A stretch of 64,000 nucleotides of DNA from Minisyncoccota bacterium (GCA_035627655.1 DASPLI010000001.1:665605-729604), one strand, 5' to 3'. Counted from the first letter of the stretch, positions 7,826 through 53,338 are shown. The notes: generated by a model not told the origin, from the sequence alone. Program-made: numbers and translations.

Positions 7826-8071
7826 TTATTCGCTTGGCGGATTTTCCCGCAAGTAGTTCGGGAGCCAGTCCATAAACCGCTTCCGATGCACATCGAGGGA
7901 CCATTCGGCACTCTGTTTAAAGAGTTCCGGATGGCGTTCGCTGAACCGGCGCAGAAGTGGCGCGGAGGCTTTCGGGAATTGCGAAGGAAGCCCGTCGTTG
8001 TAGACGGTCAGAAAGTCGCGTGCGGAGAGTTTCTTCTCGCTGCGCTCTCGGTCAAGGTCTGGTTTTCGCAT
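7826..8071 (-). CDS. Hypothetical protein of 81 aa.
   Basis: An ORF with balanced composition that sits upstream of the cspA terminator hairpin. Confidence 0.3.
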   Translation of the reverse strand: MRKPDLDRERSEKKLSARDFLTVYNDGLPSQFPKASAPLLRRFSERHPELFKQSAEWSLDVHRKRFMDWLPNYLRENPPSE

Positions 8072-8112
8072 AAGAGTGAACGCACAAGGAGCGCAGACGC
8101 GCTCCTTGATGC

Positions 8113-8310
8113 TTAGATCTTATGAACGTTCACGGCATTCTTGCCCTTCGGGCTGTCGCCGATCTCGAACTGAAGCTTGTCGCCTACACGAAGAGAATCG
8201 AATTGAACATCAACGAGCTCGTTGGCATGGAAGAAGAGATCCTTCTCCTGTCCTTCGATCTTGATGAATCCGAAACCCTCCCTGAGGTTGGTGATAACGC
8301 CTTCCGTCAT
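8113..8310 (-). CDS. cspA: Cold-shock protein of the CspA family.
   Basis: RNP1- and RNP2-like motifs (GFGFI and the FFHANEL environment) are present in a 65-aa S1-like cold-shock domain. Confidence 0.9.
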   Translation of the reverse strand: MTEGVITNLREGFGFIKIEGQEKDLFFHANELVDVQFDSLRVGDKLQFEIGDSPKGKNAVNVHKI

Positions 8311-8434
8311 AGTGATTTCTCTAGATGCACCTGATAACTATCAAGTGCAGGAGGCTGAAAACGAGAAGTCGACTAACTACTTATGGACAGCGCTGCGATT
8401 GATAGAGAGACAATAACACAGATTCCCTGAGAAT

Positions 8435-9148
8435 TCAACGTCTCCCCCGTCGAGCGGCGCTGAACCGAATACCCATGATGAATTCGTAGAATGGTCCTCC
8501 GACAAGCCCGAGGGTAAACGCCCAGGCCAGCTCTTCAAGCGGAATGCCATACAACAGGGAGCCGCTGATTTGCTCCATATGCCACCACTCCTGGATAAGG
8601 GTTGGAAAGAGTGCAAGCCATACCAAATAACCCACAAAGGTTATGCCGAGCACGAGAAGTCCCGTCACCGCCGCATTAAAAATCAAGTCATGCCGGAACC
8701 AGCACATAAACACCGCGAGCGCGAGAAACATAATGAATGAGGCATAAATTGAATTCCAGCCCACCCATAGTAGTCCGTGGAATGAGAAAGCGGCTATGAC
8801 GATGAGCGGAATTACAAACCACTTCCAGTGATGTCTCTTGTCTCTCAGCTTGAGAATTTTTCGAGGAAATGCGAGCTCGTATATGACGCTTGCGATGCCG
8901 CCGATGAGAAAGCCGTATATAAAGTCCTCGACACTTCCCAGCTGTATCGACCATACTTCGATGGGAACTAAATATATGGGACTCCAGTAATCAAAGAAGA
9001 AGGGTGCCCACAGCGGCGCAAGCATGCCTATGAGGAAGCTCATTATGAGCATCTCGTCCCGCAAAGTCCTGTTCCAGAAGAAGAGCACCAGCCACCACGG
9101 AAGGAAAATCAATCCGCCGAGCAAATAGGTATAAGAACCGACCTCCAT
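8435..9148 (-). CDS. Lycopene-cyclase-domain (CrtYcd-like) membrane protein.
   Basis: It has an internally duplicated multi-helix topology typical of lycopene-cyclase-domain proteins. The region has low GC (about 43-47%). Confidence 0.45.
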   Translation of the reverse strand: MEVGSYTYLLGGLIFLPWWLVLFFWNRTLRDEMLIMSFLIGMLAPLWAPFFFDYWSPIYLVPIEVWSIQLGSVEDFIYGFLIGGIASVIYELAFPRKILKLRDKRHHWKWFVIPLIVIAAFSFHGLLWVGWNSIYASFIMFLALAVFMCWFRHDLIFNAAVTGLLVLGITFVGYLVWLALFPTLIQEWWHMEQISGSLLYGIPLEELAWAFTLGLVGGPFYEFIMGIRFSAARRGRR

Positions 9149-9302
9149 TGAAAGAAGTATACCCTCGTCGTCCTCGTGTATCTGGGTCTAGCTGCCTTCC
9201 GAGCTCTTCATTCCGAGGTGCGCCCTCACAAGTGAATCGTTTGGTGAGGATATTCTAACCCTCGTTCGAAAATTCTTCGAGTCACGACAGCTCCGAGACG
9301 TA

Positions 9303-10409
9303 CTAAAAGGAAAGATAGGCACAGCGCCCCTGCTCTAAATAGTGGGTTCCCCAGCGCTGGACCGAGTATTTATCTTCTTCGCCGCGCAGAGCCGCTCCTG
9401 AAGGGTTGCTTGCCGACACGCCATACAGCCTGCAGCCGTCTTTGTAGACTGCGTCAGAATCCACAGCGTCGTACCAGCCTCGTACTTGCTCGACGCGGAA
9501 TGTAGCCGGATCAGCGTCTTCAACTATGTGCAGCTGTGAGCACTGCTCGTCCATGCAGTCAAAGTTATCCATGTAATACACGTGGCTGCTGTCTTTCGCA
9601 TAGGTTCTCATGCTCGCGGATTCGTGGTCGATGATTTCGAAGGTCGATACATCTATCGGCACTTCGATATCCTTCCCCGACTCGGTCAGATCACACTGGT
9701 CATACCCCTCCTCCTCAAGGGAGTGGCGGTTCTTACAGGGTATGTGCTGATGGCGTACGGATACGATAAATGTACCGTCCCGGACAGCCCGCACCACTTC
9801 GCTCCCATAATAAATCTTCCCAGCGCTCAAAACATACCTATAGCTGCCATCACTGCGCGTAAGCACCGGGGCTTTATCCAAGAACTTGAAGTCTGCCGAA
9901 TCTGCTCCTGGCAATTTTGTATCCCTGTAAAATACTGAAGCACTATCCTTGACATAGTATTCGTCTACGAGCGAGACGCTTTTAACATCTACATCGGGAA
10001 CCTTCACGACGTGCCTGCTGGAATAGGAAGAGCTCCATGCAACATAATAAAGACTATTCTTGTCCATGGCATAGAGCCGTCCCAGAGGCTGGAATGTCTC
10101 GGCGTTAGCGCCGTCAATAAAGACACTTTCTGTTTTGAAAGTTTCGCTCAGACACAGGCTGTCTTGACAGGGTCTGTAATAGAAGACTCCTTGATGGGTA
10201 GGATACGTCACTATGTAGAAACCTTCGCCACTACCTCCGCCAATCCTGTTCGAAAAAGTCTCTGGGTATGCGCTGCTGTAATAGATGAAGTAGCCTGCAC
10301 CCAGCACCAGGATAAGTAGTACGACGAATTTTCCCTTAAGACGCTCGAACCAAGAAACCTTTGTCGGAGGAGTAACACTGTCGGGTATATCGTGGCTACT
10401 TGGCGACAT
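9303..10409 (-). CDS. Secreted or membrane-anchored DKNYY-repeat protein.
   Basis: An N-terminal transmembrane or signal segment is followed by repeated [DK]-x-x-x-[VL]-[YF]-Y...GAD/ADP...TF units (MDKNSLYYV, VFYRDTKLPGADSADF, KIYYGSEVV, HVYYMDNFD, AVYKDGCRLYG). GC is low. Confidence 0.5.
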   Translation of the reverse strand: MSPSSHDIPDSVTPPTKVSWFERLKGKFVVLLILVLGAGYFIYYSSAYPETFSNRIGGGSGEGFYIVTYPTHQGVFYYRPCQDSLCLSETFKTESVFIDGANAETFQPLGRLYAMDKNSLYYVAWSSSYSSRHVVKVPDVDVKSVSLVDEYYVKDSASVFYRDTKLPGADSADFKFLDKAPVLTRSDGSYRYVLSAGKIYYGSEVVRAVRDGTFIVSVRHQHIPCKNRHSLEEEGYDQCDLTESGKDIEVPIDVSTFEIIDHESASMRTYAKDSSHVYYMDNFDCMDEQCSQLHIVEDADPATFRVEQVRGWYDAVDSDAVYKDGCRLYGVSASNPSGAALRGEEDKYSVQRWGTHYLEQGRCAYLSF

Positions 10410-10470
10410 ATATGAAATTGTACTACTAGCCCTGCGGTTCTTTTGTAGCTTTGCGAGGAGTTTCTTTTTG

Positions 10471-10542
10471 TGACCCTACGGGGAATCGAACCCCGATTTC
10501 CAGCGTGAGAGGCTAGCGTCCTAACCGTTAGACGATAGGGCC
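10471..10542 (-). tRNA. tRNA-Glu with anticodon CUC.
   Basis: A 72-nt cloverleaf folded by hand, with a 7-bp acceptor stem (GGCCCUA/UAGGGUC), anticodon loop CUCUCAC and T-loop GGGGTTCGATTCCCC. CCA is not encoded. Confidence 0.85.
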
Positions 10543-12218: not shown

Positions 12219-13942
12219 GGTTCAAGGGATGCCCGGTCCGGAGCAACCGCGTAGTAATTGATGAGGAAGTGGGTCAAGTCCATAAACGGGTGCGTGAGGG
12301 TCTCAGACGCGTACTGTACGCCTCCAGGCTCCCGTGTGTAAAGGAGGATGATGAACTCAGGGTCATAGGCCGGGAAATAGCCGAAAAACGAGTGGAGGTA
12401 GAGGCCGGGAGCGTACTTGCCGCCGGGACCCGGGACCTGGGCGGTACCCGTCTTTGCTGCCACGCTCACTTCGGGGATCGAAAGGCTGCCGTCTGCAAGT
12501 TTGGAGTCAACCACTTTGACGAGCATGCGGGTCGTCTCCTCAACCGCCTCCGGAGAGAAAACGCGCTCCGGCTGATTCCATGCAAGCGTCTTCACGACGC
12601 CCGACTCAAGACGAACCGCGCTCACCAAGTGCGGCGTCACCGTCGAGCCACCGTTCGCAAGCGCAGAGAGCGCCTTGATCATCTGCACGGGCGTCTCGGC
12701 AATACCCTGTCCGTAAGAAGCGGTTGCATATTCAATGTCGCGCGGACTCGACTCGATGTTGCGTATGTCACCGCCTGCCTCGCTCGGTAGATCAATGCCG
12801 GTCTCCGTTCCAAAACCAAGCTTCTGGAAGTAGCCACGGAACCGTTCGTGTCCGAGTCGTCCCGCAACAAAGGAAGCGCCGACGTTCAACGACTGCGACA
12901 GCACCTCCTGCATCGGCACGACGCCGCGCGCCTCAAGGTCGTAGTTACAAATCTTTGCCGTGTTGAGCGTAATACAACCGGTGTCGTTATACGTTGTATT
13001 TGCCGAAACGACGCCCGCATCAAGACCGGCGGCCATGGTGAGCGCTTTCATGATGGAACCGAATTCATACTGGTTCTCCACGAGCGGATTGCCGAAGGTT
13101 GCTGGATCCGCCTGGCTGAAGTCGCCCGGATCAAAGGTTGGCACGACCTGAAGCGCAATGATTTCTCCCGTACGCGGATTCATGATGATACCGCCCGTCT
13201 CGCGGCTGCCGTACTGCCCTTGTACTTCCGCAAGCACCTGTCCGAGCTTTTCTTGTACCACCGGTTCGATCGTCGTTACCAAATCCCCTTCGCTTGCCTG
13301 CCGCGCGTCACCAACTGCGTCTCCAACGTCTGCAAACAACTCCGCAAAGAAGTTGCCGAACAGTCCTTCGTTTCCGCGCGAGAGCACATTCTCGTAGTAC
13401 CGCTCAAGGCCAAAGCGTCCGGCAAGATCGTTATCGTTGTCGTACGCGACAAAGCCGATTGATTGCGCCGCATCCTGGCCCGCCGGATACACCCGCCACC
13501 GCTCCCGCTCCACCAACACGCCGGGAATCTTCAATTCCGCAATCGCCTGCCCTGCCGCTTCCGGAACGCGTACCGCGATCACCTCGTACGGATCGTCGGT
13601 CTTCGCCGCCGCCTCATCAAATGCCGCTCGATCAATTGAAGCATGTGCCGAAAGAGCGGCGTACGCAGCTTCCGGGTCCTTGAGACGCTTTGGATCAAGC
13701 GCGAGTCGGAATCCGGTTGCAATACCGGCTGCTGAAAGCATCGTGCCGTCCTTTCGGGTGAAATAAATGGAGCCACGATCATACAGCGCCTGCGTCGAAT
13801 TCTCGTATTGGCGCTCGGCTCGGTGCGCGAAGTCCGCTCCGTGCACGATCTGTACGAAATAAAGCCGCGCCGCAATAAAGAGCGCAAATAGGATGATGAT
13901 GAGGGAGAAGAGCCTCAGCCGCGCTCGGAGCTGCGCCCGCAT
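12215..13942 (-). CDS. ftsI: Peptidoglycan D,D-transpeptidase FtsI (penicillin-binding protein 3).
   Basis: An N-terminal transmembrane segment is followed by a transpeptidase domain with SxxK (STVK-like), SxN and KTG(T) motifs. It sits in the usual dcw-cluster position. Confidence 0.8.
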   Translation of the reverse strand: MRAQLRARLRLFSLIIILFALFIAARLYFVQIVHGADFAHRAERQYENSTQALYDRGSIYFTRKDGTMLSAAGIATGFRLALDPKRLKDPEAAYAALSAHASIDRAAFDEAAAKTDDPYEVIAVRVPEAAGQAIAELKIPGVLVERERWRVYPAGQDAAQSIGFVAYDNDNDLAGRFGLERYYENVLSRGNEGLFGNFFAELFADVGDAVGDARQASEGDLVTTIEPVVQEKLGQVLAEVQGQYGSRETGGIIMNPRTGEIIALQVVPTFDPGDFSQADPATFGNPLVENQYEFGSIMKALTMAAGLDAGVVSANTTYNDTGCITLNTAKICNYDLEARGVVPMQEVLSQSLNVGASFVAGRLGHERFRGYFQKLGFGTETGIDLPSEAGGDIRNIESSPRDIEYATASYGQGIAETPVQMIKALSALANGGSTVTPHLVSAVRLESGVVKTLAWNQPERVFSPEAVEETTRMLVKVVDSKLADGSLSIPEVSVAAKTGTAQVPGPGGKYAPGLYLHSFFGYFPAYDPEFIILLYTREPGGVQYASETLTHPFMDLTHFLINYYAVAPDRASLEP

Positions 13943-15595: not shown

Positions 15596-15855
15596 AGGTA
15601 ATGAATGGCGGTTCCGGCGAACCCTTCCACCCGCCTCGGTGTGGTTCCGCCATGACTCGGAACCGGTATGCCTCAAGAAAAAATGAGACGGGCGGAAGGC
15701 TTCGTCGGGGTTCGGAGAGGCTGAGGAAATTCCTCATCCCACTTCATCCCACTGATATGGAAGTATATGCCACTTTGCCCCACTAAACCTGTGTTTGTAC
15801 TGTGGATAAGAGAAAACGGCGCTTGTGGCGCCGTTTCAAAAACCTGTCGGTTCCT

Positions 15856-17669: not shown

Positions 17670-18140
17670 TTAGGAGACCTTGTGCACCGTATACGTCTGC
17701 TTGCCGTTTGGCGTCTCGAAGGTGAACACGTCACCCTTTTTTTTGCCCATAAGCGCGGCGCCGAGCGGTGAGACGTGAGAGAGTTTTCGTTCACGCATGT
17801 CCGCTTCTTCGCTGCCGACAATCTGATACTCGTGCATCTCGTCGCTTCCGTCTTTGCGAATGGCGACCGAAGATCCGAAACCGACCACGTCCTTTTTCTT
17901 GCTGTCCGTCGCGATCTTCGCGCGCTTGACGAGCTCTTCGAGCTTTCGAATACGCTCCTCAGTTGCCGCCTGGAGTTCGCGCGCCTCCTGGTACTCGGCG
18001 TTTTCGGACAAATCGCCAAGCGAACGAGCGTATTCAAGGTTCTTTGCGATTTCAGAACGGCGAACAGTTTTCAGGTTTTCGAGCTCTTTGACGAGTTCAT
18101 CGAATTTCTCCTGTGAAAGCAGGGTGTCTTGTTCAGTCAT
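17670..18140 (-). CDS. greA: Transcription elongation factor GreA.
   Basis: An N-terminal coiled coil is followed by a C-terminal FKBP-like domain, in a 156-aa protein. Confidence 0.85.
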   Translation of the reverse strand: MTEQDTLLSQEKFDELVKELENLKTVRRSEIAKNLEYARSLGDLSENAEYQEARELQAATEERIRKLEELVKRAKIATDSKKKDVVGFGSSVAIRKDGSDEMHEYQIVGSEEADMRERKLSHVSPLGAALMGKKKGDVFTFETPNGKQTYTVHKVS

Positions 18141-18280
18141 GAAGGTGCCTAATTGGTGCTCTTCATTGTACGTGGTGCTCCCCTGCCGTCAATGCGACGA
18201 GGCGCGGGGTCTAAATTGACACTATGTATATTCCATGTTATTTTGACGTCGGTCATTGTTCAAACCGAAAGGAGGAATTC

Positions 18281-18595
18281 ATGGCCGAAAGAGCCACACG
18301 GTCGTGGCTTGATGTAGTGTTGGAGATGTCGACAGCGTTCATCGTCTTGATGACGCTCCTCAACTACAACGAGCTCGAACGTATGTTTGTCGCCCACCAC
18401 GCGACTATCGGACACTTCGTGTTCGGCGCTGTGCTCGCCGCACAATTTGGTGCCCTCATGCACTACTTTTTGCGCGCGCAGCAAGAGGAAACGGGACGGA
18501 CTACCGGACGGCTGGTTGTTCTCGTCTACGCCTTCGCGCTGCTCATCACTGCCATCTGGCAGACAGCACAAGGCGTGCTCGTGCTCACCGCCTAA
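18281..18595 (+). CDS. Hypothetical membrane protein of 104 aa.
   Basis: An AAAGGAGG ribosome-binding site precedes the internal ATG. A terminator hairpin (GGCGCCCC...GGGGCGCC plus TTTT) lies at 18605..18633. Confidence 0.5.
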   Translation: MAERATRSWLDVVLEMSTAFIVLMTLLNYNELERMFVAHHATIGHFVFGAVLAAQFGALMHYFLRAQQEETGRTTGRLVVLVYAFALLITAIWQTAQGVLVLTA

Positions 18596-18636
18596 TACAC
18601 CAGCGGCGCCCCAGACTACCGGGGCGCCGTTTTCAT

Positions 18637-20328
18637 TTATTCGTTTGGCGGAAGTCCGAAATATTCCGGCGCAGTCTCCCGCATTTTCGTAAATACCTGA
18701 CTCATCACATACACGCCGCCAAGTGTGGTTCCAGCGGGGCCGCGCTCCATCACGACCGCAAACGCGTATTTTGGTTTGTCATATGGAAAGAACCCGACCA
18801 TCCAGGTGTTGTAGTACTCGTTATTGGCACCAAGCTGCGCAGTACCGGTCTTCCCCGCTGCTTTTACGTACGAGAGCGGATTCAAGCCCACGGACGTTCC
18901 TTCAGTCACGCCCATGCGCATACCTTCTCGCGCAATCCGGAGCCCTTCCCGATCAATCGCGATACTTTCCCCTTCCACCGGTCCGCCCGCAAGAATAGTC
19001 GGTCGGAGCAGTTTTCCGTCGTTTGCAACGGCAGCGATCGCGCGCACTGCCTCAAGCGGCGTAATCTGCATGGCGTACTGCCCAATAGAGGTGTGATACG
19101 TGTTACCGATACGCCACGGCTCGTTATATGTTTCTTCCTTCCAGGCAGGTGTCGGCACAAATCCGGAATTCTCCCCTTCAAGCTCGATGCCGGTAATCGA
19201 TTCAAGACCAAAGGCGTCGTACCAGTATTTCAAGCGCTCGATGCCGAGTCCGCGCTGACCACCAAAGCCGCCGCCCACCGTATAGAAATAGACGTCGGAG
19301 GAATATGCGACTGCGCTTCGCATATTCATGGGACCGAGCGCTTTCCAGTCACGGAAGATGGTTGGGTTTGAGGGGTCATAGGGGTTCGGTACTGAAATAG
19401 CGCCGGTAGAAACAATGATCGTCTCTGGATCGATAATCCCGTCGTTATAGATACCCGCAGCAATCAAGGGCTTCACGATGGAGCCTGGCGTATAGAGTCC
19501 CGACACGGCGCGATCGAGATACGGTTCGCGCGGATTATTCTGGTACGACGCGATCACGTCCGCCGGGGAGCCGCGCGAGAGGATGTTGGGATCGTACTCA
19601 GGGTACGAAACAAGCGCGATCACTTCGCCCGTCTCCACGTCCATCATGACGCCAGAGCCGCCCTTGTACGGAATCTGATCCGCAAGCGAAGAGATCGCAG
19701 TATGCATCGCTTCTTGTACGCGTGCATCTATGGAAAGCGCGATCGTCTCGCCGTTTTGTGCCGGCATCACGCTTCCCTGGCTTTGCACATCGCCAAGCGC
19801 GTTCTCTTCAATCAGCAGCGTCCCGTTCTTGCCGGCAAGCCGCTCTTCAAACGCAAGTTCCGCACCTGCCTGTCCCGTAATTTCCGTTTCGTAATAGTTG
19901 CCGGATGAATCTTTCTTTGGATAGGAAACATAGCCAAGCACGTGCCCGAACCCGGGCGATCGGTACTCGCGAACCGGGAAGCCATCTTCTCCGGCAACGT
20001 TTGCGGCAAGCACGACGCCATTTCGGTCCGTAAGTGCTCCGCGCTCCGCAAATACAATTTCAGGACGCAAACGGTTGCGCTCGCTTTGCGCGGCGTACGC
20101 CTCTCCGCCAATGAGACCAACAGCAACTGCTTTCCCTACCAGAATGAGGAAGAGCGCGGCAGCTCCGAGCATGAGCCCGAGATAACTGCCGTCGCCAAGC
20201 GGTTTTTCAAGACGCCCTTCAAGCCGGGACCGATCAAAGTCCGGCAAGTTTGAGGAATCAAGAAAGATCTCGTCCGGATTGAGCTCATGCCCCCGGTACC
20301 GCTTTCGACGCGAAAACCAACCCATCAT
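18637..20328 (-). CDS. mrdA: Peptidoglycan transpeptidase PBP2 (MrdA).
   Basis: The start was reset to MMGWFSRRKRY, which overlaps the mreD stop in ATGA fashion. The transpeptidase domain carries SxxK, SxN and KTGT motifs. Confidence 0.8.
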   Translation of the reverse strand: MMGWFSRRKRYRGHELNPDEIFLDSSNLPDFDRSRLEGRLEKPLGDGSYLGLMLGAAALFLILVGKAVAVGLIGGEAYAAQSERNRLRPEIVFAERGALTDRNGVVLAANVAGEDGFPVREYRSPGFGHVLGYVSYPKKDSSGNYYETEITGQAGAELAFEERLAGKNGTLLIEENALGDVQSQGSVMPAQNGETIALSIDARVQEAMHTAISSLADQIPYKGGSGVMMDVETGEVIALVSYPEYDPNILSRGSPADVIASYQNNPREPYLDRAVSGLYTPGSIVKPLIAAGIYNDGIIDPETIIVSTGAISVPNPYDPSNPTIFRDWKALGPMNMRSAVAYSSDVYFYTVGGGFGGQRGLGIERLKYWYDAFGLESITGIELEGENSGFVPTPAWKEETYNEPWRIGNTYHTSIGQYAMQITPLEAVRAIAAVANDGKLLRPTILAGGPVEGESIAIDREGLRIAREGMRMGVTEGTSVGLNPLSYVKAAGKTGTAQLGANNEYYNTWMVGFFPYDKPKYAFAVVMERGPAGTTLGGVYVMSQVFTKMRETAPEYFGLPPNE

Positions 20329-20579
20329 CCCCCTATGATACGCGCTTTGATGAATCGGCGCACGAAAAAAGCGATGAGCGAAATGCCGGCTCCGGCGATG
20401 GTCGCAAGCGGATATATACCCGGATGCGGCGCATAGTAGAGCACATCCGTGAAGACACCGGCCAGCAGTCCAATAATGGGAACAAAGAGCGCCCCCGCAA
20501 AGGAAAGGGCGAGCGTTACCGGATATGGAAAGAGGAGCGGCGAAACAAGCGCAAGCACCACTACAATCCAGCGAATCAT
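20325..20579 (-). CDS. mreD: Rod shape-determining protein MreD.
   Basis: An 84-aa polytopic membrane protein lying between mreC and mrdA, coupled 4 nt to each neighbour. Confidence 0.65.
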   Translation of the reverse strand: MIRWIVVVLALVSPLLFPYPVTLALSFAGALFVPIIGLLAGVFTDVLYYAPHPGIYPLATIAGAGISLIAFFVRRFIKARIIGG

Positions 20580-31497: not shown

Positions 31498-31538
31498 GTT
31501 AGTATATGATACCGAACCGATTCTAAAGTGTGGATGAG

Positions 31539-31576: not shown

Positions 31577-31648
31577 TCCGCGATAGCTCAATGGTAGAGC
31601 AGCTCCCTGTTAAGGAGTTGGTTCCAGGTTCGAGTCCTGGTCGCGGAG
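31577..31648 (+). tRNA. tRNA-Asn with anticodon GUU.
   Basis: A cloverleaf with a 7-bp acceptor stem (UCCGCGA/UCGCGGA), anticodon loop CUGUUAA and T-arm CCAGGTTCGAGTCCTGG. CCA is not encoded. Confidence 0.85.
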
Positions 31649-31763
31649 CAAGACAGGATTTTGAGAGTAGGTTTCTCTCAAATCCTCAAGGTTTTCCTTA
31701 CTATCTATCGGTTCGAACCGATCATTAAGCTCTCGCGCTATAGGCGCGACGGTTTCAAGACGC

Positions 31764-34091
31764 CTAAGCCTCGACTTTAACCTGCGCTTCTGCCTCAGCA
31801 GTCAAGCGCATCTGCACCGGTAGTAGCGCATCGAATTTGTTAACTACTTGCGAGTAGAGATCGATCGATTTATCTGACAGCTCAACTGAGAGGATTATCG
31901 CAAACTTAATTTTCTCAGTTATATTGCGCTGTCCTCTAGCCAATGCATGAACATGGAAGACCGGGTTCGATACGCCAGATGTTCGCTTATTCACGAGTCT
32001 GCAATCAACGCTGTCCCACTTCATTTCCTTCCTGAGGTCCTCTTCTGAGCTATAAGGATTTGGGCCATTCTGATTCACAGGAAATGCAGACTGTTTCCAT
32101 CCATCAGCCACAAGCTTCGCCACGAGAGCGGGATCTTTTGATACATTGACGCGCTTCTTCTCTGTCTTACCCGCAGCGCTCTTTCTGGAGAATTCGTACT
32201 GCGCCCCATCAGGATAAAAAGCAACCATTATCGAAGACGACGTGTAGTCGTCAGGGCTCTGAGGGTCGATTTTTGTGCATACCACCGAAGTCCACCGGAA
32301 GAGAGCTTCTCCTGAAGAGATTCCTTCTATCCACGGAATCTTGAACTCGGCATATTTGCCGGGCAGCAATTCGGCTTCGTAAATCAAGGTATAGGTTCCT
32401 TTCTCGCATGTAACAATGTCCTGAAGATTCTCCGTGAGAATTCCGTGGCCCAATTCGTTACTGTGCCCATCTCTCTTGTTTGATACAGCTGAATGAATGA
32501 GCATCGCCCTACCGGTCAGAGGACCTATTGCGCCTCTACTGTACCCGATCAAATGGCCTGCATAACGAGAAACTATAGGGGTGGCGAAACTTGTACCCCC
32601 TCGACTCAACACCTTTTCGTCTGCCTTCCCACCCACAAGATGTATTGGGGTTTGGTCGCACCCTCCAAAAGCTACTAGATCCGGCTTCATCTTGTTTCCC
32701 TCGCGGCCGGGTCCAACACAACTGTACGGGGCCTTAAGTATTTTTCCGTCTCTCTTCGTATATGCGCCAACTCCAAGGCCATTAACCATATCGGAGGGAG
32801 ACTGAATACGCTTCAGGTAATCGGGAGTCCTACTTCCATCGTTGCCGACAGCGGAGTTGAAAAGTACGTTCTCCTTCTCCGCGAGGAGATCGCAGGCAAA
32901 AGTAAAGCGGCCTATCGCATCATCCAGAATCGGCTCTGCTGGACCGATACTTAGGTTGTAGACCCTAATGTCCTTGTTCTTTGGAACCGTATCCTCAATA
33001 GCGTCGATTATCTCGTAGATATCAGGCTGTGCAGTGTCATCAGCGGGTAGCACCCTGAAATTACGCACCGCAAGCGTGGGGCGCGGAAGCTCAACCCCAT
33101 CAGGATATTGATTCAAGGGACCGTATAAAATAGCTCCGGTTACTTGCGTCCCGTGATCTACAAACGTCGGATTAGCGGGAAGTCTCGTAAGATCGATTCC
33201 GTCCGCAAAGTGAGATGTGTAAGGGTTATTTGCCTGAAGTCCACCGTCGAATACACCGATCACAACGTCCGACTTTTCGGTCGAAGTTGGAGGTAGCGGT
33301 GCACCTGAAACAGGTTGACCTCGAGTAATGATGGCGAAGTCGCGCATCTCTAGGGGATGTGCGGTTCTAAGAGGATTGAAATCCGACAGGGTCTTTAGGA
33401 TTGAACGGTTACCCCAAAGACTCACGAACGTTACTCCTGATTCGTACTGCTTGTACTTAATACTGGTGTCGGCCACTCCCGCCTTAGTCGCTACTTCGAG
33501 GAAGTTTTTAATTACGAGCTCTCTGTCCAACTTGAACGGATGCAATACAGCTTCTAGCCTGCCTTCACGCCAGTCATCAGGAATACCGAGAATCTGCTCG
33601 GATGATTCGAGTGTATCGACTGCATGTATTTTTCTTATGTCCGTCTTGAAGTTTTCATGCAAACTGCTTTCGGCTTGATTCAAACGGCTCTCGAAGCGGG
33701 CAAGTCCCTGTTCGGTGGCTCTAACGAAGAGAAGCTTTCCTGCATTAACCTCAGAGCCTCTCCTGCCCGTTTGACGCCATACGCGCGACCCCACATCCTC
33801 AAAGCCACTATTCGGTGCTGCTGCCGGGAACAACGTTTCCGGATAATAACTTTTTGCGGAAAAGGCAGGATCAAGTCTTAGACAGAAGATAAATTCGTTC
33901 GGCATTCTATTTTCAGCCGACAGACTAAGCACCTTTTCTTTTGTTGCCTTAATTCCGCCAAGCACACGCTCTCGCGCTTCTGCATACGAGGCGCGAGGCT
34001 CTTTTTGTCTGCCGCCTGCGGTCTTTGTTATAGGCTTGGTATAAACCTCACCTTTATAGAGTATTGGTCGCCTGTTTTCGTTTTCGCTCAT
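31764..34091 (-). CDS. Subtilisin-like serine protease (peptidase S8) of 775 aa, a candidate for the IetS-like component of an IetAS-type defense pair.
   Basis: The full S8 catalytic set is present: VIGVFDGG (Asp), DHGTQVTG (His), SAVGNDG (oxyanion-hole Asn) and GTSFATP (Ser). Uncharacterised N-terminal extension of about 260 aa and C-terminal extension of about 230 aa flank the protease core. The gene overlaps the upstream ATPase gene by 4 nt, and GC is about 48%. Confidence 0.75.
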   Translation of the reverse strand: MSENENRRPILYKGEVYTKPITKTAGGRQKEPRASYAEARERVLGGIKATKEKVLSLSAENRMPNEFIFCLRLDPAFSAKSYYPETLFPAAAPNSGFEDVGSRVWRQTGRRGSEVNAGKLLFVRATEQGLARFESRLNQAESSLHENFKTDIRKIHAVDTLESSEQILGIPDDWREGRLEAVLHPFKLDRELVIKNFLEVATKAGVADTSIKYKQYESGVTFVSLWGNRSILKTLSDFNPLRTAHPLEMRDFAIITRGQPVSGAPLPPTSTEKSDVVIGVFDGGLQANNPYTSHFADGIDLTRLPANPTFVDHGTQVTGAILYGPLNQYPDGVELPRPTLAVRNFRVLPADDTAQPDIYEIIDAIEDTVPKNKDIRVYNLSIGPAEPILDDAIGRFTFACDLLAEKENVLFNSAVGNDGSRTPDYLKRIQSPSDMVNGLGVGAYTKRDGKILKAPYSCVGPGREGNKMKPDLVAFGGCDQTPIHLVGGKADEKVLSRGGTSFATPIVSRYAGHLIGYSRGAIGPLTGRAMLIHSAVSNKRDGHSNELGHGILTENLQDIVTCEKGTYTLIYEAELLPGKYAEFKIPWIEGISSGEALFRWTSVVCTKIDPQSPDDYTSSSIMVAFYPDGAQYEFSRKSAAGKTEKKRVNVSKDPALVAKLVADGWKQSAFPVNQNGPNPYSSEEDLRKEMKWDSVDCRLVNKRTSGVSNPVFHVHALARGQRNITEKIKFAIILSVELSDKSIDLYSQVVNKFDALLPVQMRLTAEAEAQVKVEA

Positions 34092-35212
34092 ACCTTCGTC
34101 TTAGAGATGTGGTGCTGAACGCCTGCTGGACTGAGTCCAGTTATCTCCCCAAGTTCACGAACAGTAATTTTATCCCCCAGAACTTGCTTCGCCGCAATAC
34201 AGAACTCTCCACGAATCTTCTTGTCTCCAGTCTGAATCTCGAGCTCGTGAAGCGCAGCAACCCCCGGATTTTCTTTCTTCAAGACGATTCTTCGCTTCAC
34301 GCTGTCGGAGAATTTGCAGATATTTGCAGGACTCTTACCATCCAACAACTTGGATATTGGCTCCATTAGTGATGCATAGTCCTCAGAAAGGAAGTCGCCT
34401 AGCTGTTTTTGCAGCAATGTAAGGCGCTCGGGAGCATCAGGATTTGGAATTTCTATCGCATGGTCGAATCGTCTCCATATCGCTCGATCTAGTAGCTCAG
34501 GATGATTGCTTGTAGCGATAACCACAGAAGACACCGGCCAACTTTCAAGCTCCATAAGGAGTACGTTCACGACGCGCTTTATCTCACCAAGATCTGTAGA
34601 GTCATCTCGCTTTTTAGCAATTGCGTCAAATTCGTCGAGTAACAAAACAGCCTGAGCTTCCTTTGCGTATTGAAGAACGCGCTTTAGGTTTTGTCCCGTC
34701 TTTCCCAAAAGACTTGAGATGCTGCTCGATAAATCAAGTACCACGAGCGGCTTATCTAAAGCTGAAGCTATGTATCGAGCCAGCATGGTCTTACCAGTTC
34801 CCGGCTGGCCGGTTAGCAAAAGACTAGTCGAGGGCAATATTCCGCTCTCCATCAAGAGCGACATGCTTTTCCGCTCTTCCAGAAACGTCTGAACTCTATC
34901 TTCAAGAAGTGGTTCAAGAACTGGTGCGCGATGCACTTCGAGATTTGGAGGAATAATCGTAACCATTTCCAAATGACTCTCAGAATCAACAGGAACAGGA
35001 TCTGATACACCTCGGGTCAAAGTCCCTCCGAGCGAATAAGACGAGATCACGTCGATGATTCTCTTAGATAGCTTTGGATTCTGCTTCCGATACAAGCGAG
35101 AAAGAATGAGGGCGAGGGATTCCGCATCATTCGGTTTCCTTTCGAGCGCAGATACAATCAAATCAACTAGCACCTTATCTGCGTCCACCCTTTCCTTGTT
35201 CGGTTTATCCAT
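34088..35212 (-). CDS. AAA+ ATPase of 374 aa, a candidate for the IetA-like component.
   Basis: Walker A GQPGTGKT, Walker B LLLDEFD, sensor-1 ATSN and the arginine-finger region RAIWRRFD are present. An N-terminal domain of about 130 aa has unknown function. Confidence 0.75.
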   Translation of the reverse strand: MDKPNKERVDADKVLVDLIVSALERKPNDAESLALILSRLYRKQNPKLSKRIIDVISSYSLGGTLTRGVSDPVPVDSESHLEMVTIIPPNLEVHRAPVLEPLLEDRVQTFLEERKSMSLLMESGILPSTSLLLTGQPGTGKTMLARYIASALDKPLVVLDLSSSISSLLGKTGQNLKRVLQYAKEAQAVLLLDEFDAIAKKRDDSTDLGEIKRVVNVLLMELESWPVSSVVIATSNHPELLDRAIWRRFDHAIEIPNPDAPERLTLLQKQLGDFLSEDYASLMEPISKLLDGKSPANICKFSDSVKRRIVLKKENPGVAALHELEIQTGDKKIRGEFCIAAKQVLGDKITVRELGEITGLSPAGVQHHISKTKV

Positions 35213-35765
35213 GTATCTAAAATATTACTGTACAGAAGGTAAAAATAATATGTATATAAGCCATATCACTCTGTTCGGTATATATAATACTACGTCTAAT
35301 AGCCTGACAGACCCCTATCCGTGTGGATAAAAGATACGGCGCATGAACTAGTGAAGATTGTGTACGTCTCAGGAGCTCAAGACACGAGCGAGGTTCTAAC
35401 GTAATCCAGCCAGCGGAGCAGACTTCTGGTGTACCAGGGATCAGGCCCGCACCTCCCTACGAATCGCCCGCACGCCAAAAAGCAGGAGACTTCTCTTCTG
35501 CATGTCTTCAAGCACGCGATACTCGCCCGCTAACTGAATCTTATTTTCAAGCGGTTCTGGTCTCCATAAGTAGAAGAGTTCATATTCTTTCGTGAAATAC
35601 GGTCGCAATTTTTGAGTCATGAGGAGCAAGGTTAGATAAGTGTTAACCCTACCGTTATAAGCATGTGCGTTTGGTTAAGAATATTTGACATAAGTAAATA
35701 ATATGGTATTGTTGCCACCGGCAACAGATCTTCACTAACCCAACTTCCAAGAAAGGAGGTGTTCG

Positions 35766-37725: not shown

Positions 37726-39804
37726 ATGTTTCCACACATCCCTTTGTACGCACGTCTACTTACCATAACTGACGGTTTTCTTTCTCGAACCGGTCTCCGC
37801 GCGAATCAAGCGGCGCTGTTGGCGCTTCTTTTTATATCGTATGTGGTTACTGCCTATTTCGGTTTGCGTCTACTTTCGGTAAATGACTTTGCGGCCTTTG
37901 TCTGGCTCCCGACAGGAATTGCGATCGCCGTCCTTTTTCTTGCAGGCTACCGGTTGTGGCCGGCTGTCGCGGCAGGCGCACTTTTTATAAATCTCTGGAT
38001 TGGCGCCCCATTTCTGGCGGCCCTTGGTATTGCGATCGGTAATACGCTTGAAGCGATCGTGGGTACTTACCTTCTCAAGCGGCTCAAGGTAGACACACGG
38101 TTCGTGCGGTTTCGCGACAGCAGGAATCTTGTTTATGCCGGAGTTAGCGCGACACTTATCAGCGCAACTATCGGCGTACTGAGTCTCTTTGCGACCGGCG
38201 TCCTTAGCTCGACCGCGCTTAGTATCACCTGGATCACCTGGTGGATTGGTGACGCACTTGGCGCACTGATCATCGCTCCGCTTATTCTTGCGTGGTTCAT
38301 TCCGGCACGCACATATCTCACTACTGCACAGATAGTGGAGCGTGTAGGAATTTTCGCTCTAATCCTGTTTATGAGCTTCATCATGTTCTGGACAGGCTAT
38401 TTCCCCTATGTCTATCCGTTTGCGATTCCACTGGTATGGGCGGCAATCCGCACCACACCTCGTTTCTCCCTCCTTATGGTGTGTGCCATAGCGGCATTTG
38501 GCGCTGCGGGAACCCTTGTTGGTAACGGCGCCTTCGCAATTCCTAATACCACGCTTGGCTTCCTCTATCTCCAGCTGTTTATCGGCATTGCCGCAGGAAT
38601 CATTCTTGTATTTAGTTCGATTGTCGAAGAACGCTCCGCCATTGCCCGACAACTCGGGCACTACGTCGATTCTCTGGAACACGACCTTTCAAAGTCGCGG
38701 CTCGACGATCAGGCGAAAACGGAGTTTCTTGCCATTTTGGCGCACGAACTGCGTAACCCGCTTGCGCCCATTGTTACGACCCTCGAGCTTCTGAAGCTAG
38801 AAGAAGAGAATCGCGAACGGATTGATATGATCGAACGCGCTGAGCGTCAGAGCATGATCATGCGCCGCTTGCTCGACGATCTTCTGGATATCGCCCGTGT
38901 TGAGCAGCAGCACTTCAAGCTACAGAGAGAAATCGTTCCACTCTCCCAGGTTGTCGAACAGGCGGTACATGGTGTGCAGCCAACCATGCAATCCTTCGGA
39001 CATACGCTGAAAGTCGACCTTCCAGCACGAGCAGCCATGGTTGACGTTGATCCAGTTCGTGCCACGCAGATGTTCAGCAACCTACTCAATAACGCTGCCA
39101 AGTACACACCGCCACGCGGACGCATACAGATCTCTATGCGAAAAACCGGACGATTTGCGACCGTGGTCATTTCCGATAACGGGGCTGGCATTGAACCGCA
39201 CTTGCTCGAACGTATCTTTGAACCGTTCGTCAGCATCAGCCCGTCGGCACGTATCGGAACGGGTCTTGGCATCGGTCTTGCGCTTACCAAGCGCCTGACT
39301 GAAATGCATGGTGGCACGATTACAGCAGAAAGCGACGGACCGGGACGAGGCAGCACCTTCCGTGTTTCTCTACCGCTTGTAAATGCAGCACCATCAGAAA
39401 CGGAACCGGTAAAGACAGGAGCGCAACATGCCGGCCGCAAACATAGGATCGTCATCATTGACGACAACACCGCTGCAGCTCGCGGTCTCGCGCAACTGCT
39501 CCGCTACTCTGGGCACGAAGTTCGCGTTGCGTACCTGGGTAAAGATGCGTTCTCTCTCTACGACTTCTTCACCCCATCGCTCATGCTCATCGATATCGGC
39601 CTTCCGGATATTGATGGATATGAGGTGGCACGACAGCTCCGTCTCAAGGAAAACATGAACGCAAAACTCGTCGCGCTTACCGGGTTTGGCCAGGAGAGCG
39701 ACAAGCAGCAGGCTCGTGCCGCCGGCTTTGATCACCACCTCACCAAGCCTGTCAGTTTGGTCGATCTTGAGGCGACCTTTGAAAAACTCGAGGAAAATAC
39801 ATAG
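37726..39804 (+). CDS. Hybrid sensor histidine kinase with MASE1-like membrane domain, HisKA, HATPase_c and receiver.
   Basis: An N-terminal sensor region with 8 or more transmembrane helices is followed by the H-box FLAILAHELRNPL, the N, G1 and G2 boxes (DNGAGI, GTGLGIGLAL), and a C-terminal receiver whose conserved Asp lies in LMLIDIGLPDIDG. Confidence 0.85.
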   Translation: MFPHIPLYARLLTITDGFLSRTGLRANQAALLALLFISYVVTAYFGLRLLSVNDFAAFVWLPTGIAIAVLFLAGYRLWPAVAAGALFINLWIGAPFLAALGIAIGNTLEAIVGTYLLKRLKVDTRFVRFRDSRNLVYAGVSATLISATIGVLSLFATGVLSSTALSITWITWWIGDALGALIIAPLILAWFIPARTYLTTAQIVERVGIFALILFMSFIMFWTGYFPYVYPFAIPLVWAAIRTTPRFSLLMVCAIAAFGAAGTLVGNGAFAIPNTTLGFLYLQLFIGIAAGIILVFSSIVEERSAIARQLGHYVDSLEHDLSKSRLDDQAKTEFLAILAHELRNPLAPIVTTLELLKLEEENRERIDMIERAERQSMIMRRLLDDLLDIARVEQQHFKLQREIVPLSQVVEQAVHGVQPTMQSFGHTLKVDLPARAAMVDVDPVRATQMFSNLLNNAAKYTPPRGRIQISMRKTGRFATVVISDNGAGIEPHLLERIFEPFVSISPSARIGTGLGIGLALTKRLTEMHGGTITAESDGPGRGSTFRVSLPLVNAAPSETEPVKTGAQHAGRKHRIVIIDDNTAAARGLAQLLRYSGHEVRVAYLGKDAFSLYDFFTPSLMLIDIGLPDIDGYEVARQLRLKENMNAKLVALTGFGQESDKQQARAAGFDHHLTKPVSLVDLEATFEKLEENT

Positions 39805-44201: not shown

Positions 44202-44930
44202 TTAGAACAGGTTCCAGAGGTCCCTGCTCACGCGCACCGACGCTTGGGTGAGCTCGTGCTCTTCGACATGCTTCACCGGCAGGTTGAGGCCATTTGCGGC
44301 CGGACCCAGGGTGAAGTCGGCACCTTCGAGCTCCGCGTATGAGACGCGGGCGCCGAAGGACCAGTTTTCACTGAGTGCGAACTCAACGCCGACGCCGAAG
44401 ATGATTCCTTCTTCGATTTCGCTCGTCGAGAGGTCGTAGGGCGCATAGCCGTTGGCAGGACGGCACCAGCCGAACTGCACGGCGGCCGGATCAGGGCAGA
44501 TCTCGCGTTGTTCGAGTTCGTACCAGACCTGGCCGACTTCCGCGAAGACGTACGCGTCTTCAAATGCATACCCGACTTCGAGCGTCAGAGCGGCGACGCC
44601 GCTGTTGGTCGCTTCTTGGTCGAGGATGTTGCCATCGTTTCTGTAGACGGTGATGTCACCGCCTGCCACTCGAGCGCCGGCGCCGACAACGAGATTGTTG
44701 TCGAGCTGCATGCGACAGGAAAGCGCCGGTCCGACCATGAACCCGTCGAGGTCCTGGTCTGGCTGCGCATTCGGAAACGTCACGGTCGTCGAATTGTAGG
44801 TGGTCTCAAGGCCGAGCGAACAGCCGTCCCACCGATCTTCGTTTTCCGCGGCGGAAGCCACGCTGGGCATCGCAGCAAAGCCGGTGACGGCCGCTGCGAT
44901 GAAGAAAGCAGAATGTATCTTGCTCATCAC
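44202..44930 (-). CDS. Putative outer-membrane beta-barrel protein, a paralog of the protein at 26631..27281.
   Basis: A signal peptide (cleavage site ASA-AE), amphipathic beta-strands and a C-terminal ...LWNLF ending in Phe. Confidence 0.5.
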   Translation of the reverse strand: MMSKIHSAFFIAAAVTGFAAMPSVASAAENEDRWDGCSLGLETTYNSTTVTFPNAQPDQDLDGFMVGPALSCRMQLDNNLVVGAGARVAGGDITVYRNDGNILDQEATNSGVAALTLEVGYAFEDAYVFAEVGQVWYELEQREICPDPAAVQFGWCRPANGYAPYDLSTSEIEEGIIFGVGVEFALSENWSFGARVSYAELEGADFTLGPAANGLNLPVKHVEEHELTQASVRVSRDLWNLF

Positions 44931-51289: not shown

Positions 51290-53338
51290 ATGACCATTTT
51301 TGGTCTCCGACTCTTCCACCCCCTCACGAAACGCCAGTGGCGAGCAGCCATTCTCCTATTTATCGCCTACGTAGCCGCAATGCGGGTTTCCGCAGCACTC
51401 TTTTCAGCTCCTGGGATTATCTTCCCTGCTTCCGGCATAGCTCTTGCCGGCCTCTATCTGGAAGGGTTCGCGCTGTGGCCAGTTGTCTTTATTGCCTCTT
51501 TGGTTGGATACGTTCTCTCCGGCTCCTCCCCAGTCTATATGCTTTTGCTTCCGCTTGCGCACACCCTGCAGGCAATTGCTGGCGCTTGGATGCTCCGGCG
51601 GCTCGGCATAGACCCACTCTTCCGGCGCATGAAGGACATGCTGGCGATGATAAGCGTATCGTTCGTCGCCTCCCTTATTGTTCCAACAATTGGGACGATA
51701 GCCCGGCACCTCAATTCCTTCATCTATAACACCCCCCTTTCAAGCGTCACGTGGTCGTCTTGGTACGTCGCAACCGTGTTCAGCCTCCTTATCATCTCGC
51801 CATTTCTGATCCGCTGGTTTATTAAGCCTCGATTCTCTAGAAACAAGTTCCAGGTGCTTGAGGTCCTCTCAGCGTTCGGCCTTCTCCTTCTCCTCTCTTA
51901 TTTCCTCTTTATCACCCCCTATACGTCGCTTGCCGGCATTTCGCTTGTCTACCTACTCCTTATCCCGCTTTTTTGGATCGCGCTCCGGCTTCGTCCACGC
52001 TTTACGACGCTCGCTCTTATCCTTCTCTCCTGCTTTGCCTTCGCCGGCATCTTTCTTGGTGCAAACGCACCAGACCCAGCCGAGTATGGTCAACGCCTCT
52101 TTCAGACAGAGATTTTCCTAACCATTATCGCTGCAATCTTCTTTATTCTGACTTCGCTTGAGGAGGATCGTCGAATGACGACGAATCTTATGCGCTCGCA
52201 AGTCTCAACGCTCCAAAACGCTCTTGAGCGCGTTGCCTCCCAAGACAAAGCCAAAAGCGAGTTCATCGCCATGCTTGCGCACGAGCTTCGAAACCCGCTC
52301 GCCCCTATTGCAAGCTCGATTGATCTCTTGCGTCTCAAAAGCCCGAAAGATCAGGAACAGATTGAGCTTCTGAATTTGATGGATAACCGTATGCATACCA
52401 TCAAGCGTCTTCTCGATGACCTGCTTGATGTATCGCGTATCGGCGAAAACAAGCTCGTACTTGAAAAAGAGCAGATTGAGGTGTCTACCGTGGTGCGGCG
52501 AGCTGCAGCCTCGGCCGAACCGTACTTCCAGCAGCGCAACCAGAATCTGGTACTCGAGATGCCGGGAACCGAGTTTGTGATCGAAGCAGACCCGGTTCGC
52601 ATTGAACAGGTCATCACCAACCTGCTTACCAACGCCTCAAAGTTCTCTAACCCGCGAGACGAAATCCGGCTGACCGTGCGTCAGTCCGGCGACATGGTTG
52701 AAATCACCGTTTCCGACCGCGGTGTCGGTATCGATGAGGACATGCTTGGACGAATCTTTGAACCGTTCTTGCAGGTAGAACTTGGTAAACGCACCCGCCA
52801 GGGCCTTGGCATCGGACTTGCCTTGGTTCGAAACCTTACGGAGATGCACGGCGGAAGCGTACGTGTAAAGAGCGCAGGCAAAGGCCGCGGCAGTCAATTT
52901 ACGGTGCTGCTCCCATTAGTATCTAAAACACCAAAACGTATGCGTGAACCAGAAGAACGAGTTACCCCTAACCGGGCACCAAACGGCTTTCGAGTACTTG
53001 TAGTTGACGACAACGACAGCGCCGCATGGAGTATTGGTCGAGTGTTGGAACTTCAGGGGTACCAGATTGACTACGCATATGACGGTGAGCGCGCACTGGA
53101 GAAAGCGCAGGGCTTCAAGCCACATGCAGTCCTTCTTGATATTGGACTACCAGACATGGATGGCTATGAAGTTGGGAAAGCGCTGCGCGGGCAAGGATTT
53201 TCAGGACGTTTGATTGCTCTCTCCGGATACAGCGTTGCCGATGACGCGACGCGCGGAAAGGCAGCCGGTTTTGACTCTTACCTCATTAAGCCGGCCAGCA
53301 TGTCTGATCTTACGCGCGTACTTGAAGGACTTGCCTAA
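51290..53338 (+). CDS. Hybrid sensor histidine kinase with MASE1-like membrane domain, HisKA, HATPase_c and receiver; a paralog of the kinase at 37726..39804.
   Basis: The architecture is identical to the first kinase: H-box FIAMLAHELRNPL, G-boxes, and a receiver with the conserved Asp in VLLDIGLPDMDG. Confidence 0.85.
   Translation: MTIFGLRLFHPLTKRQWRAAILLFIAYVAAMRVSAALFSAPGIIFPASGIALAGLYLEGFALWPVVFIASLVGYVLSGSSPVYMLLLPLAHTLQAIAGAWMLRRLGIDPLFRRMKDMLAMISVSFVASLIVPTIGTIARHLNSFIYNTPLSSVTWSSWYVATVFSLLIISPFLIRWFIKPRFSRNKFQVLEVLSAFGLLLLLSYFLFITPYTSLAGISLVYLLLIPLFWIALRLRPRFTTLALILLSCFAFAGIFLGANAPDPAEYGQRLFQTEIFLTIIAAIFFILTSLEEDRRMTTNLMRSQVSTLQNALERVASQDKAKSEFIAMLAHELRNPLAPIASSIDLLRLKSPKDQEQIELLNLMDNRMHTIKRLLDDLLDVSRIGENKLVLEKEQIEVSTVVRRAAASAEPYFQQRNQNLVLEMPGTEFVIEADPVRIEQVITNLLTNASKFSNPRDEIRLTVRQSGDMVEITVSDRGVGIDEDMLGRIFEPFLQVELGKRTRQGLGIGLALVRNLTEMHGGSVRVKSAGKGRGSQFTVLLPLVSKTPKRMREPEERVTPNRAPNGFRVLVVDDNDSAAWSIGRVLELQGYQIDYAYDGERALEKAQGFKPHAVLLDIGLPDMDGYEVGKALRGQGFSGRLIALSGYSVADDATRGKAAGFDSYLIKPASMSDLTRVLEGLA

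Follow-up and report, generated by a model that had tools for sequence, protein, structure and literature searches.

A divergent IetAS-family ATPase-protease pair at tRNA-Asn, a probable recombinase hotspot, in a Candidatus Paceibacterota genome

The IetAS systems combine an AAA+ ATPase (IetA) with an S8 serine protease (IetS) and were, in the account cited in PMC13069673, first described as a plasmid-stabilising toxin-antitoxin pair. The Agrobacterium pTiC58 pair (Yamamoto et al. 2009, as cited in PMC13069673), like related Rhizobiaceae plasmid pairs, has the AAA+ gene in front of an S8 protease gene that overlaps it. Toxicity resides in IetS and IetA acts as its antitoxin, ATPase-mutant IetA is not clonable and protease activity is needed for defence, the anti-phage mechanism being given as unknown (PMC13069673). 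The systems tested in Escherichia coli or Bacillus subtilis are those of Gao et al. 2020 (as cited), of Bacillus cereus m1293 (10.1101/2022.08.27.505566) and of ECOR52 (10.1101/2022.08.21.504612). Homologs protect against phages through abortive infection (PMC13069673, 10.1101/2022.08.27.505566); in the B. cereus system it is the expression of SPbeta YosG that sets this off (10.1101/2022.08.27.505566). Two further relatives are SgiAT (S026/S025) of Salmonella Genomic Island 1 (SGI1), a functional toxin-antitoxin pair carried by a chromosomal integrative element, for which no operator was described (PMC5006074), and ietHAS (Liu-DS4; PMC13069673), which requires an additional SNF2-type helicase gene. 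Few defence systems are known in genomes of the candidate phyla radiation (CPR) (PMC12366544), and a survey of those in CPR genomes, with particular regard to Paceibacteria, already exists (PMC12259885). Here an IetAS-family pair is described in a stretch of 64,000 nucleotides (nt) of GCA_035627655.1 (DASPLI010000001.1:665605-729604), a metagenome-assembled CPR genome of small size belonging to Candidatus Paceibacterota; this whole stretch is called the window, and positions are counted from its first letter. Acquisition of the pair as a horizontally moved IetAS-family module at a recombinase hotspot is very probable, and it is likely, with somewhat less assurance, that the module and the toxin-restraint logic of the family go together as one package.

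The pair lies directly after the 3' end of a tRNA gene:

31577..31649, plus strand: tRNA-Asn(GUU), called by ARAGORN
34088..35212, minus strand: ietA, open reading frame (ORF) of 374 amino acids (aa)
31764..34091, minus strand: ietS, ORF of 775 aa

The ATPase gene comes first and the protease gene second on the one strand, overlapping by 4 nt (ATGA, junction GTATGAGC), an order that is kept in nearly all sufficiently long loci among the 160 surveyed; the translational coupling, too, is that of the family. This layout had been read in the same way in the initial annotation, where the pair was likened to IetA/IetS, and profile searches agree with that identity: IetA matches PADLOC PDLC02196 (E=1.5e-82, residues 14-372 on profile positions 6-371 of 374), IetS matches PDLC02197 (E=4.7e-54, residues 24-581) and seven more IetS models, and the top NCBIfam matches are IteA_antiphage and IteS_antiphage. 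The families and the gene order are thus those of the systems tested in E. coli and B. subtilis, whereas the scores of the window proteins fall under the equivalog cut-offs; judged from these scores, the pair is a divergent member of the IetAS family, outside the curated ortholog group of the tested systems.

Comparison with the plasmid pairs places it in the same way. The pAtG3_79a pair has similar lengths (381/739 aa against 374/775 aa here), and one Agrobacterium example, annotated as an ATP-binding protein (381 aa) and an S8 peptidase (739 aa), adjoins a Tn3 transposase. IetS aligns with those of the Rhizobiaceae plasmids over about 97% of its length, and the IetA motifs and the ITGxS helix-turn-helix are common to both, whereas no more than 26-30% of residues are identical in IetS and 32% in IetA, and the window copy is chromosomal in a CPR bacterium. 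With ietHAS the window pair has the IetA and IetS components in common, but neither a helicase nor any conserved third gene stands beside it or beside the pairs of close relatives. The neighbours considered for that role were the 207-214-aa genes upstream and the 126-133-aa genes downstream in four relatives (L002, L005, L007 and L010, by the labels of the compared loci), which are mutually unrelated and unrelated to the window, and a 217-aa membrane protein of the window, which was rejected as a host gene. SGI1 keeps an integrase and is mobilisable, whereas the window islet is without recombinase.

IetA is a classical-clade AAA+ protein (Pfam AAA, E=4.2e-29; core at residues 131-256). An N-terminal region precedes the core, the protein ends in a helix-turn-helix at about residues 345-372, and the closest solved relatives are Cdc48, p97 and PAN. 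Walker A (G135-P137-G138-G140-K141-T142), Walker B (D193/E194), sensor-1 (N236) and the arginines of WRRFD (R247/R248) can all be recognised, and K141, D193/E194, N236 and R247/R248 are invariant across six copies, one of them from an Agrobacterium plasmid. The isolated tail matches Pfam HTH_24 (E=8.4e-4), and its ITGxS is invariant, the Agrobacterium copy included. The classical-clade core is shared with the PAN/Cdc48-proteasome and FtsH, and the next-best PADLOC matches are TRIP13 models of type III CBASS (6.1e-17). With TRIP13 there is an earlier case of an AAA+ remodeller keeping an immune effector off, an analogy that is used here as a lead only. IetA differs from all of these in its own N-terminal region, in its predicted DNA-binding tail and in its partner, which is a subtilase and not a proteasome or a HORMA protein.

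The protease can be divided into four regions:

aa 1-24: N-tail
aa ~67-246: prodomain-like ferredoxin-fold
aa 274-550: S8 core (Pfam Peptidase_S8)
aa ~556-775: beta-jelly-roll

The catalytic residues D282, H313, N417 and S501 are invariant in 30 homologs. The nucleotide-binding and subtilase motifs named in the initial annotation are both present and conserved. No signal peptide is evident in the IetS sequence, and the protein is predicted to be a cytoplasmic S8 subtilase. In domain-level AlphaFold models, with a predicted local distance difference test score of 80.8 each, the N-terminal region is ferredoxin-like, and many subtilase propeptides and inhibitors are among its matches, such as POIA1 (7.5), PCSK9 (7.1), pro-Tk-SP (7.1), pro-subtilisin E (6.2) and cucumisin (6.0); it also matches ACT and S6 folds, and its likeness to subtilase propeptides and inhibitors is therefore one of fold only. 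Residues 1-24 are predicted to be disordered, yet their RRPILYKGExY motif is nearly invariant (RRPILYKGEVY in the window copy). The C-terminal 190 aa lie outside the PADLOC profile match, yet they align with plasmid IetS in tblastn. It had been proposed that the large terminal domains could make this protease a distinct variant, and this had to be abandoned: with plasmid IetS proteins of Agrobacterium, Rhizobium, Paracoccus, Enterococcus and others the alignments take in 94-98% of the query, identity being 26-30%, and an exhaustive family search gave 394 clusters (50% identity; E<=1e-30), of which nearly all of the best 150 have 740-790 aa and align end to end. By these alignments, the N- and C-terminal regions of IetS are the norm of the family.

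The 3' end of the tRNA-Asn faces the stop codon of ietS across a gap of 114 nt. The pair has a GC content of 0.486 and the remainder of the window one of 0.553, which puts the pair 6.7 points under the host, and in 1-kb windows across the 64 kb (mean 0.548, sd 0.03) the interval 31.5-35.5 kb forms the longest run below 0.50. The value of about 48% first estimated for the segment thus stood, whereas the 58-65% then given for the flanks was too high, the computed local flanks being 0.51-0.63. The precomputed gene calls and Pfam annotation of a public ENA metagenome contig of 742,731 bp, part of which is identical to the window, gave def, fmt, a YggU-like gene and hpf on the tRNA side and the 217-aa membrane protein, a NUDIX hydrolase and a MASE1 hybrid histidine kinase on the opposite side, in agreement with the housekeeping surroundings recognised at the outset.

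The closest genomes were found through Fmt (64-70% identity; MreB 85%). In all five (L011, L012, L013, L015 and L016) ietAS is absent within 10 kb, beside fmt/tRNA-Asn. The informative relatives are these:

L011 (UBA6241; Fmt 68%): tRNA-Asn in the same place, overlapped over 40 nt by a 527-aa large serine recombinase (Resolvase+Recombinase+Zn_ribbon_recom)
L011, 11643-20033, cargo: the recombinase, DUF805, Septu PtuA/PtuB (E=2.6e-158, 4.5e-81), a 511-aa protein without family match, and a D12 adenine methyltransferase
L016 (Fmt 64%): tRNA-Asn identical to that of the window at 73/73 positions, followed by ordinary genes, with no recognisable element
L007/L008 and L041 (IetS 53-54%): ietA-ietS followed by several small genes, next a recombinase gene that runs into tRNA-Asn with its last 33-40 nt, and beyond it yggU-hpf-fmt-def
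L005 (IetS 54%): arranged likewise, the recombinase being divergent and uncalled and the tRNA-Asn containing an intron
L010 (IetS 47%): the pair with a diversity-generating retroelement, a primase-polymerase and another serine recombinase
L002 (IetS 75%): the pair in an unrelated neighbourhood

The large-serine-recombinase genes finish inside tRNA-Asn (L007 14891-14930; L011 11643-11682; L041 ~15819-15851), their last ~13 codons (...GQDSNLRPID*) being antisense to the 3' half of the tRNA and their stop being the antisense of the anticodon-loop TTA. In L005 (13488-13817, minus strand) the anticodon of tRNA-Asn(GUU) is split by a group I intron of ~260 nt (Rfam RF00028, 80.8 bits, E=6.7e-21), and for this reason ARAGORN misses that tRNA. 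In L010 (5266-6650) ietAS stands directly after the retroelement (bAvd and reverse transcriptase), and the element also has an HTH_17 protein.

The window shares with L002 only 35293..31765, that is the two genes and 81 nt of leader. Low GC content, absence from the closest genomes, a copy of 75% identity in another neighbourhood and shared DNA limited to the genes and their leader together argue for a horizontal origin. These results leave very little room for an ancestral housekeeping pair, native to this locus, in which an unfoldase and a peptidase would act as a two-gene substitute for Lon or FtsH. Such a pair would fit the position among core genes and the closeness of IetA to the protease-feeding AAA+ modules of Cdc48, PAN and FtsH; it is largely refuted by the absence at the locus in five of the five closest genomes, by the composition, by best profile matches that are defence families, and by a patchy spread (CPR, Bacteroidota, Dependentiae, plasmids and viral contigs) with linkage to recombinases and other mobile genes. 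The two findings named at the outset as speaking against the IetAS reading, proteins unlike IetA/IetS or the same genes in all relatives at native GC, were not made.

The idea of a degraded or cargo-only element at the tRNA, raised with the initial annotation, gained in strength, since the pair of L005, L007/L008 and L041 is accompanied by a recombinase ending inside tRNA-Asn. No integrase had been noticed in the segment, and in tblastn with three large serine recombinases the window gave no match, nor was one found among the Pfam-annotated genes within 10 kb. Because relatives carry a recombinase and defence cargo at tRNA-Asn and the window is without recombinase, the islet would be a recombinase-less remnant in a defence hotspot. 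L011, the closest genome found, has another defence cassette at the same tRNA-Asn hotspot. A trace of the lost gene may be present next to the tRNA:

31650..31658, plus strand: 9-nt trailer AAGACAGGA, identical to the 9 nt after the tRNA-Asn of L011

In L011 this sequence encodes P-V-L of the recombinase C-terminus, and L016, L007 and L041 differ there. The antisense frame over tRNA and trailer reads ...NPVLLRDQDSNLEPTP in the window and ...SPVLLRGQDSNLRPID in L011. The trailer is possibly what remains of a recombinase gene at its 3' end, a weak indication because the tRNA sequence dictates most of the peptide. No tRNA-derived direct repeat was found at the far edge of the islet, where the best match to the tRNA 3' end is 12/17; the 8-mer GCGGAGCA at 35414-35421 was considered as an att site and rejected, reaching only 12/17 on extension. 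Crossover by serine recombinases takes place at a 2-bp core, with no long repeat left behind, and the missing att repeat is therefore expected.

The limits of the islet are marked by the following features:

31656..31685, no strand: hairpin GGATTTTGAGAG / CTCTCAAATCC of 11 bp with one bulge, between tRNA and ietS, read from the sequence
35294..35684, no strand: orphan low-GC spacer (GC ~0.45) of 390 nt, between the ietA leader and a host promoter
35441..35629, minus strand: unsupported 62-aa ORF inside the spacer, uncalled on the public contig
35685..35712, plus strand: host promoter TTGACA-16-TATTGT with TG, of the conserved gene of the 217-aa membrane protein (promoter scan, 10/12)

The hairpin is probably a bidirectional terminator; a terminator scan, which needs a tighter T-run, did not call it, and L011 has a hairpin at the same offset after tRNA-Asn. 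Within the tRNA-Asn/ietS spacer there is also a perfect 16-nt palindrome, ATCGGTTCGAACCGAT, at 31708-31723, and a related motif, CGAACCGAT, occurs upstream of tRNA-Asn at 31513-31521. On the other side, TTGACATA... at the promoter of the 217-aa gene is kept at equal distance in L203/L204, and the homology of L201 begins at 35719. This promoter would mark the return to host DNA, and since it is conserved in relatives and L201 is homologous from 35719 on, the right edge of the islet is somewhere within the 35294..35684 spacer. The spacer has no blastn or tblastx match in any of the 204 compared loci, and the 62-aa ORF has no Pfam family match. The neighbours of the right-flank gene change from each relative to the next, even where the protein is 84% identical. 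Just upstream of its homologs in L203 (7742-9790) and L204 (7842-9743) stands a different S8 peptidase, without an ATPase partner and of cell-surface type (Fervidolysin_NPro-like, surface Ig-like and PG-binding domains), whose match to the position of ietS in the window is probably coincidence. Near the membrane-protein homolog of L201/L202 a protein with a CD_NTase_C domain (12228-13142) is possibly CBASS-related, and a Prim-Pol/PriCT gene followed by a small resolvase lies at 17846-20362.

An islet that has lost its recombinase could be a decaying, non-functional relic of a mobile element. The lack of a recombinase and of an att repeat, the orphan spacer of 390 nt upstream, and the degenerate left and right operator arms described below are in favour of this view. 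This alternative is nevertheless improbable, given that both ORFs are full length (100% coverage against homologs) with the 4-nt coupling kept, that all catalytic and nucleotide-binding residues are intact, and that non-synonymous divergence is about one fifth of synonymous. In the comparison with the 75%-identical copy of L002, pN is 0.16 and pS 0.86, a saturated value, in both genes; because dS is saturated against this copy, pN and pS are given instead of dN/dS. With pN about one fifth of pS, both genes have been under purifying selection.

Survival of these two genes from an element that lost its recombinase and accessory genes is also what is expected of an addictive module. The pair could then be an addiction module only, acting by post-segregational killing: it would once have stabilised the element, its loss would be lethal and it would have no phage-defence role here. 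The early description of IetAS as a plasmid-stabilising pair, and SgiAT, which promotes island maintenance (PMC5006074), are in favour of this possibility. SgiAT, however, gave no killing from its native promoter (PMC5006074), and addiction and defence are not mutually exclusive roles; homologs confer the abortive infection cited above; and the closest genome has Septu and a methyltransferase at the same tRNA-Asn, which indicates that the cargo of the hotspot is biased to defence. A role in addiction alone is accordingly rather unlikely, and a defence module of the IetAS family, brought to tRNA-Asn by a recombinase, is the preferred reading.

The predicted DNA-binding tail of IetA directs attention to the ietA leader, where leader alignment revealed three operator-like half-sites:

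35310-35303, minus strand: half-site CTGTCAGG
35278-35271, minus strand: half-site CCGAACAG
35235-35228, minus strand: half-site CTGTACAG

They are located at about -90, -60 and -15 from the ietA ATG and, spanning 35228..35310 of the leader, bracket an AT-rich TATA-like box. The architecture was defined as a half-site followed 27-37 nt downstream by its reverse complement and, a further 39-50 nt on, by the half-site once more, with <=2 mismatches. It was found in 16 of 79 non-redundant leaders against 18 of 1580 dinucleotide shuffles (1.1%), an enrichment of ~18-fold, and in only 1 of 228 real-sequence controls (downstream of ietS 1/72, inside ietA 0/79, further upstream 0/77). In a looser count of generic repeats the leaders were no better than the controls, and the geometry-specific test was used instead. 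Across loci, the half-site classes follow the classes of predicted IetA recognition helices:

recognition helix GVQHH: half-site ACCGAACA
recognition helix GVQYH: half-site ACTAAACA / ACTGAACA
recognition helix ST[VI]QHH: half-site ATCGAAC
recognition helix S.VQYH: half-site TT[AC]GCACA
recognition helix SRDT[LI]RK: half-site TAGTCC
recognition helix SAATVSR: half-site TGAAACA

The window thus has the predicted helix GVQHH with half-site CCGAACA, whereas Agrobacterium has SRDTIRKY with TAGTCC; the Agrobacterium plasmid leader contains GTGGACGA and TAGTCC as an inverted pair ~33 nt apart, with no third arm. Repression of the operon by the IetA helix-turn-helix through the putative three-half-site operator can be put forward tentatively, at somewhat under even chances. 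The same caution applies to the wider proposal, for which the case falls a little short of balanced, that IetA is a sequence-specific DNA-binding AAA+ protein whose operator co-evolves with its helix, while tRNA-Asn(GUU) serves as a dedicated dock at which recombinases swap cassettes.

From the family and from these predicted features a working scheme can be drawn. A serine-recombinase element would have brought the pair to tRNA-Asn, the recombinase and accessory genes being lost later in this genome. IetS would be a cytoplasmic subtilisin-family protease, toxic when unrestrained, and IetA a hexamer-type AAA+ ATPase keeping it in check: the IetA ring may spend ATP to hold or remodel IetS through the conserved N-tail and/or the prodomain-like module, so that the protease stays inactive. 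At the same time the C-terminal helix-turn-helix of IetA, sitting on an operator over its own promoter, would hold expression down in the manner of type II antitoxins. If a phage cue were to occupy or disable IetA, IetS would be freed and the operon derepressed; the freed protease would then cleave host and/or phage proteins, and the infected cell would stop growing or die.

Several observations weigh against the acquired, self-repressed IetAS module in this form. The NCBIfam scores are 239.3 bits for IetA and 138.8 bits for IetS, under equivalog cut-offs of 510 and 900, and with these and the 26-30% identity of IetS the experimental properties carry over by family and not by orthology. The pore-loop position of IetA reads L-L-G and not aromatic-hydrophobic-Gly, so that threading of a substrate is not assured. 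The operator of the window is degenerate, with 4 mismatches over two arm comparisons, and the promoter scan gave no sigma-70-type site on the ietA strand. The agreement between helix and half-site classes is confounded by the shared ancestry of the loci. Finally, no relative with both window flanks joined was found, and the insertion is for that reason deduced from one flank and composition.

When the window was scanned for further defence genes, none was found beyond a weak match of an RmuC-family protein (2327-3388, minus strand; Pfam E=1.1e-53) to the reverse-transcriptase-associated RmuC of PADLOC (E=1.1e-19). Its gene is without a reverse-transcriptase partner and translationally linked to a P-type cation ATPase, and it is probably housekeeping. 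A second low-GC stretch (0.49; 8001-10542), directly 3' of tRNA-Glu(CUC) (10470-10542, minus strand), encodes a Lycopene_cyc-domain protein (8435-9148) and a DKNYY-family protein (9303-10409), neither of which matches defence profiles. A 242-aa ORF at 44202-44930 (minus strand) matches outer-membrane beta-barrel families (OMP_b-brl, E=1.4e-10), which is unexpected because CPR bacteria are generally thought to lack an outer membrane. Two hybrid histidine kinases (37726-39804 and 51290-53338, both plus strand; 692 and 682 aa), 11 kb apart and both of MASE1-HisKA-HATPase_c-Response_reg organisation, are probably paralogs.

The annotation of the pair matters little in itself, because standard defence finders would call IetAS here. 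The analysis suggests that the parts worth following are the tRNA-Asn/serine-recombinase hotspot and the pairing of helix-turn-helix and operator, of which the latter would be new. Were the pairing to hold, one and the same protein would repress the operon and, with ATP, restrain the protease, and an infection in which free IetA is lost would both unleash and amplify IetS. Were the dock to hold, recombinases whose reading frames finish antisense to the tRNA would swap cassettes of IetAS or of Septu and methyltransferase at this site. The operator and the helix-turn-helix of IetA, the prodomain-like module and the disordered N-tail of IetS offer leads on how an ATPase holds a protease and how the protease is switched on. 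Moreover, the locus would be a clean example of how defence genes enter ultra-small CPR genomes and afterwards become fixed there, an element docking at tRNA-Asn and its toxin-antitoxin-like cargo alone surviving.

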